64,000 nucleotides of DNA from an uncultured Candidatus Micrarchaeota archaeon (GTDB taxonomy: Archaea > Micrarchaeota > Micrarchaeia > Anstonellales > Bilamarchaeaceae). A program made the position numbers and the translations under genes. Where the stretch lies: NCBI GenBank assembly GCA_963804385.1, contig CAWDQD010000036.1:13250-77249 (forward strand), given 5' to 3'. Positions 23,101 to 27,336 of this stretch are shown in pieces. Below the pieces are notes generated by a model. It made no database searches. It had not been told where the DNA came from and worked only from the letters and a program-made list of their open reading frames with translations. Numbering within the stretch: position 1 is the first letter of the stretch; the number at the start of each line of letters is the position of its first letter.

Positions 23101-23418
23101 TCAGAGCCTCTTCGCGAGCATCTTGAAATGCTCCCGCGCGGCAGAGAGGGACTCCTTGCCTTTCGCGCTCAGGGTGTAGTATTTCCTCCGCTCATGGGTC
23201 TCGGAACTGATGAGGCCTTCGTTCTCCAGGCGGTATAGCACTATGTACACCATGATCTTGTCGGGCTTGAACGAGAACCGCTTCTCTATCTGCTCGTCCA
23301 GATTGTAGGCGTACAGCTTCCCTTCGCTGTTGATGAGCGAGAGGAGATAGAGCCAGAGGTTGCCCGAGGTGAGAAGGCGCTTGAGGCGCTTGATCGGCGT
23401 CGGTGTTTCCATAACCAT
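23101..23418 (-). CDS. PadR-family transcriptional regulator
   Basis: A 105-aa winged-helix protein: LWLYLLSLINSEGKLYAYNLDEQIEKRF...VLYRLENEGLISSE. Its start overlaps the stop of the upstream 1266-aa gene by 1 nt. Confidence 0.75.
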   Translation of the reverse strand: MVMETPTPIKRLKRLLTSGNLWLYLLSLINSEGKLYAYNLDEQIEKRFSFKPDKIMVYIVLYRLENEGLISSETHERRKYYTLSAKGKESLSAAREHFKMLAKRL

Positions 23419-26400
23419 CAGGATTTCTCGGACTTGTCGGGTTTCTCGAAGGCCTTCCTGGCGAACCGCTGCTCCGGTGATCCGCTGTTCTCCTTCTTTA
23501 CGGCGGCCTCGACTATTTTTGCGGCCTGTTCTTCCATCTGACCGACTTTCGCATTCATGTCATTCAAATTATCCTCAGCACGTATTGCTATGTCAACACC
23601 AGAAGGAATGACCCCCTTCTTAGGATCGAAATCATTGAAGTATATAGACGACTTATATGCCTCCCTCCCCAGGGTCTCACCGGAGCTAGATCGCAGCATC
23701 TCATCCAGCTTAGCGGTTGCGGCTTGCTCAGCAGCCTTCTGCTGTTCTAGCGTCGGAGGCCCGACAGGGACTGCGGCCCGGATCACTTTCTCCCTCTCGG
23801 CGTCTGCGGCCCGTTCGGCAGCTTTCCTCTCATCTAAAGTGGGGTTGAATTTCCCGGCTACCTGCTCAGCTGCTAGGACCGAAGGCGCCTCCCCTAGATA
23901 ATTCCACGTGGAAGCGGCCTTATTATCTCCGACTGCCCTGCATATGCCTTCATTTGCATGCGCGATTTTGGCAGCTGCGACGAAATCCGGTTTTTCGGGA
24001 TTGAGCGCTTCCCTGTACTCGGCCGCGTTATCATCCATCCTCTTGGTGAACGATTCTCTCAGGTTCGCGTCTCTTATATGGGGTGTCCCATCCTGATCGG
24101 TATACGCCGCGCTCTTGAGCAAGGTGATGTTCAAGTCTGCGAGCTGGGCTCTCTGGTTGTCGGCCGAATTCAGATAGTTCGTCGCCGCCTTGGGGATTCC
24201 CGGCACCGCCTCAGCTAAACCGGTCCGCATGTAATCATTCTGCCTGTCCGCGATGATCTGGAGCCGCTCCGGAGCGCGGGTGAGGTCGCCTTTGGCAACC
24301 AATTGGCTGACTTGGTCGCTGGCTAGGATAGATGCCTCGAGCGTCTTCCTTTCGGCATTGGCTGCGGCCATGGCAGGCGGGACAGGGACTCCTGCGCGCT
24401 CGCACGCGGCTGTCGTGGACACATCGGTGTTCCGTATTGCGTTCAATTCTGCCACCGGAACCTGCGCGGCATTGCTTTTCGGAATCATTCCGAGGATATT
24501 CCCTGCTGAATTGGCTTCCACCTGCACACCGATATTGAATTCTTTGACCGCGGCCGGGCTCGTGAGCTTCGATGCGTCCGCCGGGCTTATCGTGCCGTTT
24601 TTCAATGCTTGATCAACGGCAGCTTGCATGAAGATCTTTGCTGTTTCTGGATTCGTCTTCTTCAGATCATCCACGCTTTGCCCAGAGTTCACCATCATGG
24701 TGACTGCAGCAGCAACAACCTCGCCTTGCGATTGCACCCCGAACTTGGCGGCAATCTCGGCCCCCATCTGCGAGTTCTTCTTAGGGTCCGAAAAAACGGA
24801 GGACTCCAAGGCCTGTTTTATATCGAAAAGAGCTTCTGTGTTGTTTTTGGCGAACGCCCGGCCTTTGGTTTCCTCTGGCGGCAGGGTATTGACTTCTGCC
24901 GGAGAATAGAATATGCCCCTGCTTGCCAATGCATCCGCAGCGATCTCCTGCTCGGCCTTTCTGACTGCTGGCAACGCTTCCGGGTGTTCACGCGCGAGCT
25001 CTCCCCATGCCTTCTTCTCAGCATCCTTCCAGTCATCCGCCTTGGCTGTCTGGACGGCTATGCTGTTCGTACGGAATGAATCGATGACCGAGGAAAGATC
25101 GTTGAATGCGGCCGCCTGGCCAGCCAACAGGTTGGCGGCATTCCCTTTATCTGCCAGGGTGGTCACTCCCATGGTCTTGAGGGCGACCCCTTCCGCGTAT
25201 CCTTTTACCATTGAAGCGTCGAATTTCTGCCCCGTGGGGTTTTCGATTGTGGATTCCTGCCCAGAGGGCCCCCTGCCCGGAACGATGTTCACTTTTATAT
25301 CTTCTTTGCTTCCCGCCACAGAGAATGCGGTCGCGATCGATGCTATCTTCAATTCCGGCTCCTGATTCACCATCTTGCCGTCCTTGGCTCCGAAGGTGTC
25401 GTATATGGCCGCGGGGTTATTCGAAGGCAGGCCTTTCGTTATCTCCACAGGCTGCCCAGCCACGGTAAGCACATTATTCTTCTCCACTAAGACGGGCACT
25501 TGCACGGGCTTGCCACCCACAGATTGCTCTATGTAAAATGAGACATTGCCTTTCGGGTCTGTCTTAGCCAAGACCTGGTACTCTTTGGCCTCGCTTGGCT
25601 GGAGGATCTTACCCGTGGCGTCCAGTTTTGCCGGGGTCACGATCTTTATCGTGACAGGATCGGCGCTATTCAGGACTGGTTTGCCCTTAGCATCGAGTTC
25701 CTGGGCTACTGTGACCGTGACTGTTTTTGGAGTGACCTTACCATCCATTATTGCAGCGCCGGCTTCAGGCAGCACGTTGTAGACCAAGGTGATATTACCG
25801 TTTGCATCAGGCTTGGAGCTCCCGGGCTGCAGGACACCATAGCTTCCGTTCGGGAGAGCGACCGAGAGGCCGCCCTGTTTATTGTACATGGCGATGACTG
25901 CCATGTCATTCTGGGCCCTGGCAGCTGCCTTGTCCTTATCATTCAGAAATCTGGTCATGAGTGCATTGCCGTTGCCTATGGTAGCGTAAGAATCCACTAT
26001 CCTTCCCAATGCGGATCCTGTGAACGCGAGAAGGCCGACCGCTTTCCAGTCGAGCTTGGCTCCGCTTCCGCCAACCCCTGCGCCTCCTTTCATCATATCG
26101 CTCAGCCGGAGACCCCCTCCGGCTCCGGTGAGGATCTGCTGGTTACCACGCGATACAAGAGTTCCGGCTGCCTGCGTAGTGCTCCTGCCCTGCGGATTCG
26201 CCAGCGTGTCGAGGGCTTTGCCGTACGACCCTTTCCCCCCACCTTTGCTGAGCGCCGTGGCCTGCGCATGCAACCCGAGCGCGGCGGATGACCGGGTACC
26301 GGAGATCAAAGGGCCGCCGAACGCCTTGAGCGGGCCGCCCATCTGCTTCGCTTCTGCTTTCATGGCATCGAGACGGCTCATCGGTTTGCCATTGGCATCC

Positions 26401-27218
26401 TTCGGGCCCTCAGCGACTTTGGTGATGGATGAAGCGGCGGTCGCGACGCTCTGGACGTTCATGGAGAAACCGCGGCCCCTCGCCTGATAGCGTATGTGCT
26501 TGCCCACGCGGCCTCCGCCCATATTGAAGGATGCGAACGGGTTCCTGCCGGTCATGTAGAGCGCTCCGGAGAGCAATGCGAATATGATTATCAATGGTAG
26601 GCAGATCGCCGGGGTCGCCAGCTGCACGGATGGCGGTGCGCAATATGAAACGGTAGTGAGGTCAGGGAAGTAAAGGTTGGAATTCAATGGATTCGGGGCT
26701 GTTGTGCTGCCCCACTCGGGTATGACCGCCGGATTCGTCACGGCATCGTTTGGTATGTTGGTATAATGGCCGGTCACGTTGCTGATATCCGCGTAGGCTG
26801 TGCATTGGGCGAATCCGCAGTCGCCGCCGGCCACGTCGCAGAACGGGCAATAGAGGACCTTTATGTTAACGCACGCCCCGGCCCATTGCGTGAAGTCGAA
26901 CGTCGCCTCTCCGCTATTATCCGTATACGTCTTATAGAGCGATTTCAATCCGCTAGAGTTGGTCAGCTCCACCAGGATGGTCGAATCGTTGACAGGCTGG
27001 CGCGAAGGCGTCGCCGTCGCATTATCATAATACACGTTTATCTGGGCGACATGCGTGTCCTGGTCGACCCCCACGAGGACTTTTGCCTGCGGTCGGTTCA
27101 GGAAGTCGTTGCATACTGGGCACTCCTGCGCGTATGACAGGGATGCCAGGATGCAGAGCATGAAGCTGAAGAGCAAGAAACCGGAAAAGAGCCGCGAACG
27201 GAGGACATCGGACAGCAT
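23418..27218 (-). CDS. Large (about 1266 aa) bitopic membrane protein of unknown function, sharing an N-terminal module with the MP1-MP6 paralogs
   Basis: Domain order, N to C:
- signal-like N-terminus MLSDVLRSRLFSGFLLFSFMLCILASLSYAQ
- roughly 190-aa Cys-containing ectodomain (ECPVCNDF, CPFCDVAGGDCGFAQC)
- one TM, AICLPLIIIFALLSGALYMTGRNPF
- roughly 1000 aa of Ala/Lys/Gly/Gln-rich sequence with no motif I recognise

The start is set to ATG 27218, 25 nt downstream of a TTTATAA box. ATGs at 27254 and 27266 are alternatives. The track start at 27632 would overlap the divergent gene. Confidence 0.7.
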   Translation of the reverse strand: MLSDVLRSRLFSGFLLFSFMLCILASLSYAQECPVCNDFLNRPQAKVLVGVDQDTHVAQINVYYDNATATPSRQPVNDSTILVELTNSSGLKSLYKTYTDNSGEATFDFTQWAGACVNIKVLYCPFCDVAGGDCGFAQCTAYADISNVTGHYTNIPNDAVTNPAVIPEWGSTTAPNPLNSNLYFPDLTTVSYCAPPSVQLATPAICLPLIIIFALLSGALYMTGRNPFASFNMGGGRVGKHIRYQARGRGFSMNVQSVATAASSITKVAEGPKDANGKPMSRLDAMKAEAKQMGGPLKAFGGPLISGTRSSAALGLHAQATALSKGGGKGSYGKALDTLANPQGRSTTQAAGTLVSRGNQQILTGAGGGLRLSDMMKGGAGVGGSGAKLDWKAVGLLAFTGSALGRIVDSYATIGNGNALMTRFLNDKDKAAARAQNDMAVIAMYNKQGGLSVALPNGSYGVLQPGSSKPDANGNITLVYNVLPEAGAAIMDGKVTPKTVTVTVAQELDAKGKPVLNSADPVTIKIVTPAKLDATGKILQPSEAKEYQVLAKTDPKGNVSFYIEQSVGGKPVQVPVLVEKNNVLTVAGQPVEITKGLPSNNPAAIYDTFGAKDGKMVNQEPELKIASIATAFSVAGSKEDIKVNIVPGRGPSGQESTIENPTGQKFDASMVKGYAEGVALKTMGVTTLADKGNAANLLAGQAAAFNDLSSVIDSFRTNSIAVQTAKADDWKDAEKKAWGELAREHPEALPAVRKAEQEIAADALASRGIFYSPAEVNTLPPEETKGRAFAKNNTEALFDIKQALESSVFSDPKKNSQMGAEIAAKFGVQSQGEVVAAAVTMMVNSGQSVDDLKKTNPETAKIFMQAAVDQALKNGTISPADASKLTSPAAVKEFNIGVQVEANSAGNILGMIPKSNAAQVPVAELNAIRNTDVSTTAACERAGVPVPPAMAAANAERKTLEASILASDQVSQLVAKGDLTRAPERLQIIADRQNDYMRTGLAEAVPGIPKAATNYLNSADNQRAQLADLNITLLKSAAYTDQDGTPHIRDANLRESFTKRMDDNAAEYREALNPEKPDFVAAAKIAHANEGICRAVGDNKAASTWNYLGEAPSVLAAEQVAGKFNPTLDERKAAERAADAEREKVIRAAVPVGPPTLEQQKAAEQAATAKLDEMLRSSSGETLGREAYKSSIYFNDFDPKKGVIPSGVDIAIRAEDNLNDMNAKVGQMEEQAAKIVEAAVKKENSGSPEQRFARKAFEKPDKSEKS

Positions 27219-27240
27219 GATAGGTATCGGCTTGGCAGGT

Positions 27241-27250: not shown

Positions 27251-27308
27251 TCATGCCATGGACCATTTCGGATTCTGGGGAGGAAACGATGCGCCAGCGT
27301 GAGAAACG

Positions 27309-27316
27309 TTTTAATA
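27309..27316 (+). promoter_or_regulatory. TATA-like box for the MP1-MP6 operon (leaderless)
   Basis: TTTTAATA lies 21-28 nt upstream of ATG 27337. Confidence 0.45.
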
Positions 27317-27336
27317 GGTGAGCAAGAAAACTACGC

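Follow-up and report, generated by a model that had tools for sequence, protein, structure and literature searches.

What does a long single-pass protein do beside an array of six membrane proteins that are transcribed away from it? This question is raised by a stretch of 64,000 nucleotides from an uncultured Candidatus Micrarchaeota archaeon (contig CAWDQD010000036.1 of assembly GCA_963804385.1, positions 13,250 to 77,249), here called the window, whose own positions are used throughout. The gene for a 1266-aa protein (the large protein) and the first of six genes for paralogous polytopic membrane proteins (MP1 to MP6) are divergent and lie 118 bp apart (27219-27336); the last large gene of the MP operon is L7, which encodes a secreted Cys-rich protein. 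An earlier note on this DNA proposed that the large protein and the MPs share a membrane-proximal module and dock into one assembly. Our analysis supports a common assembly by gene linkage and co-variation, but not by a shared module, and we consider it probable, with appreciable room for doubt, that the large protein is a dedicated partner or subunit of an undescribed envelope complex encoded by the MP1-6 and L7 cluster.

A search of 5.8 billion proteins returned 31 homologous clusters of 788-1503 aa (E=0 to 1e-43), and a scan of GTDB species genomes gave 50 genomic loci, all in Micrarchaeota. The scan used strict motif patterns, and the cultured A_DKE, Mia14 and ARM-1 were not among the returned loci. 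All named homologs belong to Micrarchaeota or Micrarchaeia, and a few NCBI records read only 'archaeon' or 'Ca. ainarchaeum sp.'. Upstream flanks were available for 45 Micrarchaeota loci and downstream flanks for 40. The divergent layout of the window (L7<-MP6...MP1, large gene->) is found in 36 of the 45, while seven have a co-directional layout (MP1->...MP6->L7->large gene) with the large gene directly after L7. One further locus has three genes between L7 and the large gene, and the last (L042), a poorly assembled 9-kb contig containing N, has no MP or L7 within 4 kb upstream. Hence, the large gene is linked to the MP1-6/L7 cluster in 44 of 45 loci. Homologs without MP genes, which the earlier note had named as a refutation, are essentially absent from these loci, L042 being the one exception. 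L7 orthologs occur in 38 loci. Moreover, the pairwise identities of the large-protein core and of the MPs are correlated (r=0.89), and in bins with two clusters each large-gene copy shares its nearest neighbors with its own MP array.

Could this linkage be a frozen gene order around an independent surface protein, such as a receptor, an adhesin or an S-layer anchor? The housekeeping neighbors downstream of the large gene (a PadR-family regulator, a Fap7-like kinase, ScpB, an ACT-domain gene and tRNA-Ser) are also syntenic across many loci and therefore gene order is generally stable here. Micrarchaeota also have an S-layer whose anchoring is unresolved (bioRxiv 10.1101/2021.04.28.441871). Yet both layouts keep the large gene at the cluster while the PadR-Fap7-ScpB block moves, which argues for a functional linkage over a frozen order, and the extra cluster copies L008 and L023 have the large gene but not PadR, Fap7 or ScpB. 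The ectodomain is small and conserved, unlike that of typical adhesins, and Pfam detects no S-layer domain (PF05123) in the large protein. The Micrarchaeota S-layer protein SLP_Mh is glycosylated, conserved in the phylum, about 101 kDa in size and poor in sulfur-containing residues, and it carries PF05123 (bioRxiv 10.1101/2021.04.28.441871). In contrast, the large protein and L7 have many extracellular Cys and no PF05123 according to Pfam, and an S-layer identity was rejected for both. An independent surface protein is thus distinctly unlikely.

Two copies of the large gene were seen in four metagenome-assembled genomes (L008/L032, L014/L023, L015/L039 and L007/L018). In the first two pairs both copies lie in complete MP1-6/L7 clusters, and these clusters are 42-56% identical to each other; in the first three pairs, those with downstream flank, PadR-Fap7-ScpB follows only one copy. 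Such pairs are either true duplications of the whole system or mixed bins.

The earlier note had drawn the link between the seven proteins from a parallel between the end of the transmembrane (TM) helix in the large protein and the ends of TM1 in the MPs. The strings it quoted from the large protein, MP2, MP4 and MP5 are present as written, but the parallel is no better than chance. BLASTP of the large protein against the MPs yielded no significant match near the TM. A comparison by hhalign of a 52-sequence profile of the large-protein family with each MP orthogroup profile (35-38 sequences) gave probabilities of 0.1-3.7%, as compared to 98-99% for MP against MP, where pairwise BLASTP reached E values of 1e-5 to 1e-14. 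A hidden Markov model (HMM) of the TM1 exit, built from the six MP orthogroup alignments of 35-38 sequences each, scored the large-protein family at no more than 1 bit, versus 8.6 bits for the best random open reading frames (ORFs) from the same loci and at least 33 bits for true MPs. Its alignment to the large protein covers the hydrophobic stretch only and not the exit motif. All that the two families have in common is a YxxG where the TM ends on the inner side; it is conserved in the large-protein family and the MP2-MP5 orthogroups, is missing from MP1 and MP6, and is too short to test.

The signatures of the two families exclude each other. The MP signature [Y]xxG...P.L..WAK.E followed by TM2 is absent from the large protein, the MP core motifs LLP.G..LR...TR..G.LLIA.A and C-terminal LGGE....IS..V are absent from both the 1266-aa sequence and the family consensus, and the large-protein signature GRNPF..F..GG.R.G.HIRYQARGRG is absent from all MPs. 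Together with the negative tests, these mutually exclusive signatures point to a chance or convergent resemblance of the TM exits. A module shared by descent or domain exchange, with the tail of the large protein in place of the later TMs, would fit the parallel topology (a signal-like N-terminus, then a TM exiting to the cytoplasm), the YxxG motif, which in MP5 and the large protein is followed by NP, and the position of the best local hhalign match on TM1 for MP2, MP4 and MP5. Set against the negative searches, the exclusive signatures and an ectodomain of ~175 aa that has no counterpart in the MPs, such common ancestry is highly improbable, and at the sequence level the large protein has no detectable homology to the MPs. 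The useful result for the proposed shared module is therefore a negative one: it is not homology. The two kinds of protein do resemble each other in their locus, their divergent promoter, their extracellular Cys-rich segments and their taxonomic range. They differ in that the MPs have about five TMs, while the large protein has one TM, a juxtamembrane motif of its own and a cytoplasmic tail of ~1000 aa.

What the large-protein family does share is an N-terminal core (residue numbers are those of the 1266-aa protein). BLAST and iterative HMM searches reveal a steep gradient of conservation, in which every member has the N-terminal 285 residues and the tail past about residue 420 can be detected in a handful of relatives only. 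As the earlier note had observed, the N-terminus is signal-like and is followed by a single TM: hydropathy identifies exactly one hydrophobic segment besides the signal (residues 204-226), and the signal peptide forms an N-terminal helix in the AlphaFold2 (AF2) model. The Cys-containing ectodomain was likewise found, at ~175 aa instead of the about 190 aa given, with eight Cys and four N-x-S/T sequons. Its near-invariant Cys are C33xxC36, C116, those of Y-C124-P-F-C127, C134, C139 and C193, and the sequons N66 and N87 are kept in 28 of 31 homologs. Invariant columns continue through the TM (C206, F213, L216, G218 and G224) into the juxtamembrane motif (N226, P227, F231, G239, H241, Y244, Q245, G248 and R249), and an iterative HMM recovers the signature GRNPF..F..GG.R.G.HIRYQARGRG in 82 of 82 family members. 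In the AF2 model the juxtamembrane segment has a predicted local distance difference test score (pLDDT) below 50 and is therefore taken to be unstructured on its own; being invariant yet unstructured is typical of an interaction motif.

Three family-wide distributions support the architecture of a type I membrane glycoprotein, with the N-terminus and ectodomain predicted outside and the tail inside. The ectodomain has 9-12 Cys as compared to 0-3 in most tails, sequons number 26 per 1000 aa in the ectodomain versus 5.5 in the tail, and the 30 residues after the TM contain on average 4.8 Lys and Arg versus 1.1 before it. The window protein has all features of the family, namely the signal peptide, the Cys-rich ectodomain with YCPFC, one TM and every invariant column. 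Judged by these sequence features, it is a member of a Micrarchaeota 'CxxC-ectodomain / HIRYQARGRG' single-pass family, which is defined here and carries no name in databases.

By sequence, the invariant CPFC looks like the active site of a glutaredoxin, but its predicted fold does not. A thioredoxin or glutaredoxin reading of YCPFC was rejected, as the motif lies in a loop after a β-sandwich strand without a β-α-β fold (AF2), and a Foldseek search of the PDB with the AF2 model returned no thioredoxin-fold match. The ectodomain model has no fold neighbor in the PDB at E<0.001 (Foldseek). The two CxxC pairs together with C134 and C139 in the extracellular β-sandwich may form a metal site or have a redox role.

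The tail of ~1000 residues was described earlier as low-complexity, which is not borne out. Entropy in 40-aa windows is 3.3-3.9 bits, and AF2 predicts a folded all-β and a folded all-α domain behind a Gly/Ala-rich linker (Table 1). Its composition is biased as noted toward Ala (15.8%), Gly (8.4%) and Lys (8.0%), but not toward Gln, which is outside the eight commonest residues. The block that contains the linker (residues 261-470) has 17% Gly and 15% Ala, and residues 300-415 are recognizable in 46 of 82 members (iterative HMM). A check for disorder by pLDDT gave a divided picture: only about 232-313 and 342-385 look disordered (pLDDT <50 at 291-313 and 342-385), short helices occupy residues 391-447, and the two predicted folded domains lie beyond. 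The β domain was detected by iterative HMM in only P0001, P0002/L001 and P0003 among the 82 members, and global alignment places it also in P0298 and P0299 (48-52% identity). The α domain was modeled from an alignment of six sequences only (predicted TM-score, pTM, 0.65) and shows in the model helices of 15-51 residues separated by short loops, which look bundle-like; its homologs are limited to P0002, P0298, P0299, P0303 and P0003, and a search with the tail alone found just P0298, P0299 and the frameshifted P0001. In a comparison with the closest homolog, P0002, the core reaches 75-80% identity, the α domain 59%, and the linker and β domain 42-45%. The tail is therefore constrained yet lineage-specific, its α domain being better conserved than the linker and β domain. 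Every family member has a tail of 580-1250 aa that is rich in Ala, Gly and Ser and mostly has 0-3 Cys, and in most members it is net-negative.

The absence of known motifs from the tail, also part of the earlier description, holds for Pfam, NCBIfam and PDB sequence searches. Foldseek comparison of the two AF2 models of the large protein with the PDB gave best E values of 0.03 and 0.35, at query-normalized TM-scores of at most 0.12, and thus no meaningful neighbor for the β or the α domain. A likeness to phage tape-measure proteins in BFVD (Foldseek, E=2e-3) was rejected as a generic long-helix similarity (TM-score 0.07). Those weak BFVD matches could be cited in favor of a tail that is merely a disordered or coiled-coil low-complexity spacer without folded domains, as could the Ala/Gly/Lys bias, the Ala/Gly/Ser bias that all family tails have despite no sequence similarity and the pLDDT below 50 in ~232-313 and 342-385. 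We give this spacer reading little credence: entropy is 3.3-3.9 bits, pLDDT is mostly 78-91 in the β domain (450-631) and mostly 75-90 in the α domain (694-1245), where many helices of 15-50 residues are joined by short loops at a pTM of 0.65, the α domain is more conserved than the linker (59% versus 45%), and the TM-scores against BFVD and the PDB do not exceed 0.12, so these matches are not meaningful. By prediction, the tail is compositionally biased, not low-complexity, and largely folded.

An ENA contig encodes a protein, P0001, that matches the window protein exactly through residue 925, after which it switches to a different frame of this DNA (window position ~24489). This switch amounts to a 1-nt indel relative to the window, which is either an assembly error or a strain variant. 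The window's frame past residue 925 is backed by four other homologs and not by P0001.

Table 1. Features of the large gene, its promoter region and the neighboring genes in the window.
Feature	Position	Strand	Details
Large-protein coding sequence	23418..27218	minus	1266 aa; stop TGA 23418-23420; best-supported start ATG 27218-27216
Signal peptide, residues 1-31	27126..27218	minus	h-region FSGFLLFSFMLCILASL; cleavage-like SYA/QE, putative cleavage; hydropathy
Predicted extracellular Cys-rich domain, residues 32-205	26604..27125	minus	AF2 pLDDT ~95; β-sandwich core ~44-123
Single TM helix, residues 206-226, CLPLIIIFALLSGALYMTGR	26541..26603	minus	hydropathy; AF2 helix 206-222
Basic juxtamembrane motif, residues 227-285, NPFASFNMGGGRVGKHIRYQARGRGFS...	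26364..26540	minus	most conserved linear element of the family
Gly/Ala-rich linker, residues 286-390	26049..26363	minus	mostly predicted disordered
All-β domain, residues 450-631	25326..25871	minus	AF2 strands, pLDDT mostly 78-91; specific to a small clade
All-α domain, residues ~694-1245	23484..25139	minus	two helical sub-blocks, split near 993-1006
PadR-family winged helix-turn-helix regulator	23101..23418	minus	Pfam PF03551, E=2e-11; start overlaps the stop of the large gene (TGATG)
AAA_18/Fap7-like nucleoside kinase	22564..23100	minus	Pfam PF13238, E=4e-20; syntenic in 29 loci
ScpB	22008..22577	minus	Pfam PF04079, E=4e-26; 14-nt overlap with kinase gene; syntenic in 27 loci
tRNA-Ser (anticodon TGA)	21924..22007	minus	starts one base past the ScpB stop
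TATA-box-like TTTATAAA	27240..27247	minus	first T 29 nt upstream of ATG 27218; predicted promoter of the large gene
TATA-box-like TTTAATA	27309..27315	plus	28 nt upstream of MP1 ATG (27337); predicted to drive the MP1-6/L7 operon
MP1-MP6, six paralogous polytopic membrane proteins	27337..34996	plus	fixed order
MP1	27337-28581	plus	
MP2	about 28578-29585	plus	
MP3	29582-31774	plus	
MP4	31774-32841	plus	
MP5	32841-33944	plus	
MP6	33947-34996	plus	
L7, secreted Cys-rich protein of ~1430 aa	34999..39297	plus	lipobox-like LSGC; last large gene of the MP operon
Multi-zinc-ribbon protein	39300-39635	plus	Pfam
o188, 188-aa cytoplasmic protein	39640-40206	plus	
Secreted Lon_C (S16)-domain protein	40949-42712	plus	C-terminal TM; Pfam
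LarE-like ORF between the trailing genes	40203-40898	minus	NCBIfam

The MPs themselves form six 1:1 orthogroups, and their order is unchanged across at least 39 Micrarchaeota loci, which suggests a hetero-oligomer of fixed stoichiometry. Their C-termini share an acidic LGGE/D motif. When 1.84 billion proteins were searched with an MP profile, 2883 representative clusters (50% identity) matched. Of ten clusters looked up, one carries a name, Micrarchaeia. Neither MP1-6 nor L7 has a Pfam or NCBIfam match, and the MP profile has no match among PDB sequences; a WCOR413 reading of MP2 was discarded as noise (22.8 bits, under the cut-off of 25). Proteins of the MP3 type have a long extracellular insertion with repeated CxxCPxxC[RK]...P motifs, and relatives reach 1.4-1.7 kaa through more repeats. 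Six such long relatives gave no Pfam match. The CxxCPxxC repeats are candidates for disulfide knots or metal sites. Two further ORFs in this region, one of 612 aa antisense to MP3 (29618-31456, minus strand) and a TTG-started extension of L7 over MP6 (34225-35000, plus strand), have translations rich in Arg, Gly, His and Pro, in contrast to the genuine genes of the region, and look like alternative-frame artefacts in GC-rich coding DNA, not genes.

The genes that trail L7 travel with the cluster. The order L7, Zn-ribbon, o188, Lon_C is also found in L053 (11319-14143), L048 and L041; in L053, Elp3 comes after the Lon_C-like gene with the order kept, and in the co-directional layout the Zn-ribbon/o188/Lon_C trio lies behind the large gene. 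A maturation protease of the complex is one possible role for the Lon_C-like protein. A divergent lineage ('Ca. ainarchaeum sp.', GCA_028712065.1/GCA_028686985.1) has an ordered MP1-6 array with housekeeping flanks (L051 5325-12018; L052 158-2175).

We next turn to how the large gene is expressed, which bears on the choice of its start codon. The open frame on the minus strand runs from 27632 to 23418 and contains in-frame ATGs at 27266, 27254 and 27218. The geometry of archaeal promoters is well established and allows a start to be chosen among them. ATG 27254 and ATG 27266 lie upstream of the TATA-like box TTTATAAA, the same sequence is present at locus L001 of the closest relative, and in about 36 of 46 loci a TATA-like motif precedes the ATG nearest the signal h-region by 27-30 nt, while distal ATGs are without one. 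The public annotation of the source contig also gives a 1266-aa product (P0301). ATG 27218 is taken as the start because of this geometry, its conservation and the annotated length. With the transcription start placed by promoter geometry, the mRNA of the large gene is probably leaderless or near-leaderless from this ATG. An alignment-free listing of 33 intergenic regions showed two conserved blocks, one per promoter: AAATTTATAAATTTACTAAA on the side of the large gene and the complement of TAGATTTCTTGCTCAT.CATTTAAACGTTT on the side of MP1. These blocks include bases between the TATA box and the ATG.

Downstream, the junctions described earlier were all found in the sequence. The stop of the large gene and the start of PadR overlap as TGATG, the ATG of the kinase gene directly follows the PadR stop TGA (a 0-nt junction), and the kinase and ScpB genes overlap by 14 nt; Pfam agrees with the identities given for PadR, the Fap7-like kinase and ScpB. 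As tRNA-Ser lies one base after the ScpB stop, it terminates the string of large gene, PadR, kinase and ScpB. The ACT-domain gene lies beyond tRNA-Ser, and archaeal housekeeping genes surround the locus (exosome, prefoldin, Elp3, HerA and adenylosuccinate synthetase).

The coupling to PadR is real and conserved: in 28 of the 40 loci with downstream flank, PadR directly follows the large gene. The large protein might instead be a transmembrane signaling partner of PadR, whose ectodomain senses an envelope or host cue and whose tail sequesters or releases PadR; PadR would control the divergent promoter, and proximity to the MPs would reflect regulation and not co-assembly. The TGATG coupling, the frequency of PadR as next gene, its presence nearby even in the rearranged loci L041 and L048, the compact conserved 118-bp bidirectional control region between the large gene and MP1 and the frequent pairing of PadR-family regulators with membrane proteins in general are in line with such a role. 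On the other hand, in the co-directional layout (L043, L048) a Zn-ribbon gene, not PadR, follows the large gene. The tail, which would have to bind PadR, shows the lowest conservation within the protein although PadR itself is conserved, and the most conserved elements are extracellular, TM and juxtamembrane. PadR-Fap7-ScpB-ACT moreover resembles a housekeeping block whose synteny may be historical. A signaling role in place of co-assembly is therefore unlikely, and so is the explanation of MP proximity by regulation, but a PadR partnership and a subunit role can coexist.

Three other genes of the window lie apart from the cluster. A Fic/DOC-domain protein (45121-46086, plus strand) and a HerA-type ATPase with DUF87 and HAS-barrel (46945-48447, minus strand) are encoded a few kb past it, and a 363-aa ORF at 12291-13382 (minus strand) encodes a diguanylate cyclase domain of the GGDEF type (Pfam E=1e-13), a domain that few archaea have.

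Does the large protein or its cluster correspond to a system already known? The large protein matches no family in Pfam, NCBIfam or PDB sequences, and no Pfam domain was found in any of the 31 family members; a sub-threshold hit to BIg21 (E=0.07) was set aside as noise. In the searched literature on genomics and cryo-electron tomography, no Micrarchaeota or DPANN cluster of this kind is described. None of the families and systems used for comparison accommodates the large protein and its cluster.

In architecture, there is a likeness to the bacterial FimV/HubP/TspA polar hubs, which are N-out single-pass proteins with a small extracytoplasmic domain and a long, biased, mostly acidic and fast-evolving cytoplasmic scaffold. 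The large protein shares their topology, the small outer domain and the long, variable and mostly net-acidic tail. In contrast to FimV/HubP, it is archaeal, has no LysM and no FimV C-terminal motif (Pfam, 31 members), is encoded with a dedicated membrane-protein cluster and has no sequence or fold similarity to them.

For the MPs, Mce transporters offer a comparison. Mycobacterial Mce subunits form a heterohexamer. In mycobacteria, a single operon contains the genes of six paralogous Mce subunits and of accessory membrane proteins (PMC9882608). Common to both systems is an operon for six envelope proteins that are paralogs and keep a fixed order, together with accessory single-pass proteins, and both occur in organisms that must scavenge from a host. 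However, Mce subunits are single-pass and carry MCE domains, whereas the MPs are polytopic, lack an MCE domain and have no homology to them, and the MP cluster has no YrbE-like permease or MceG-like ATPase. Purely by analogy, MP1-6 might follow a hetero-hexameric logic, in which the large protein would be an accessory subunit.

How might the large protein work as a dedicated subunit? The conserved N-terminal third, comprising the ectodomain, the TM and the juxtamembrane motif, would dock into the MP1-6/L7 complex. The ectodomain might contact L7 and/or the extracellular loops of the MPs, and the juxtamembrane motif might bind the MPs at their cytoplasmic loops and C-termini, which are conserved and acidic. 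The fast-evolving tail could then be a scaffold or adaptor, specific to each lineage, through which the membrane complex is connected with partners in the cytoplasm, while PadR, translationally coupled to the large gene, plausibly controls the 118-bp divergent region. Possible roles of the complex include host contact or exchange, envelope biogenesis and transport.

Several observations weigh against a subunit role. Synteny and co-variation would also be expected from shared regulation or from vertical inheritance of a stable locus, and the correlation of r=0.89 is in part due to shared phylogeny. The presence of two clusters per genome could reflect contamination of bins. At locus L042 neither MP genes nor L7 occur in the 4 kb upstream of the large gene, and conversely the MP1-6 array of the divergent lineage has no L7 or large gene within ~9 kb, from which it follows that the MP hexad can be encoded with neither of them close by and is the broader core. 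In a host-contact protein, a conserved ectodomain would not usually be expected to go with a variable cytoplasmic tail, and the tail model rests, for its α domain, on the six sequences mentioned above.

Still, none of the large protein, MP1-6 and L7 matches a known family and linkage is nearly constant, so together these genes probably encode an undescribed cell-envelope machine. The analysis defines a phylum-conserved gene cluster of ~20 kb that comprises MP1-6, L7, the large protein, the Zn-ribbon protein, o188 and the Lon_C-like protein. Of these, MP1-6, L7, o188 and the large protein have no match in Pfam, NCBIfam, PDB sequences or the literature, and the Zn-ribbon and Lon_C-like proteins carry generic domains only. 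As the sole component that joins an extracellular domain to a big cytoplasmic domain, the large protein is a natural handle for partners inside the cell.

DPANN archaea, Micrarchaeota among them, are found attached to archaeal hosts, and to our knowledge the proteins that build the DPANN cell-cell interface are largely unknown. In a tentative and rather doubtful extension, the cluster would encode a phylum-wide envelope-spanning machine for host contact or exchange, in which MP1-6 form a hetero-hexameric ring, the giant L7 sits outside and the large protein provides the single-pass link to a lineage-specific scaffold in the cytoplasm. If this were true, the machine would be the missing molecular basis of DPANN symbiosis and would be unrelated to known secretion, pilus, transport and S-layer systems. 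Should it prove to be a housekeeping device of the envelope, the complex would still be a membrane assembly of a kind new to archaea.

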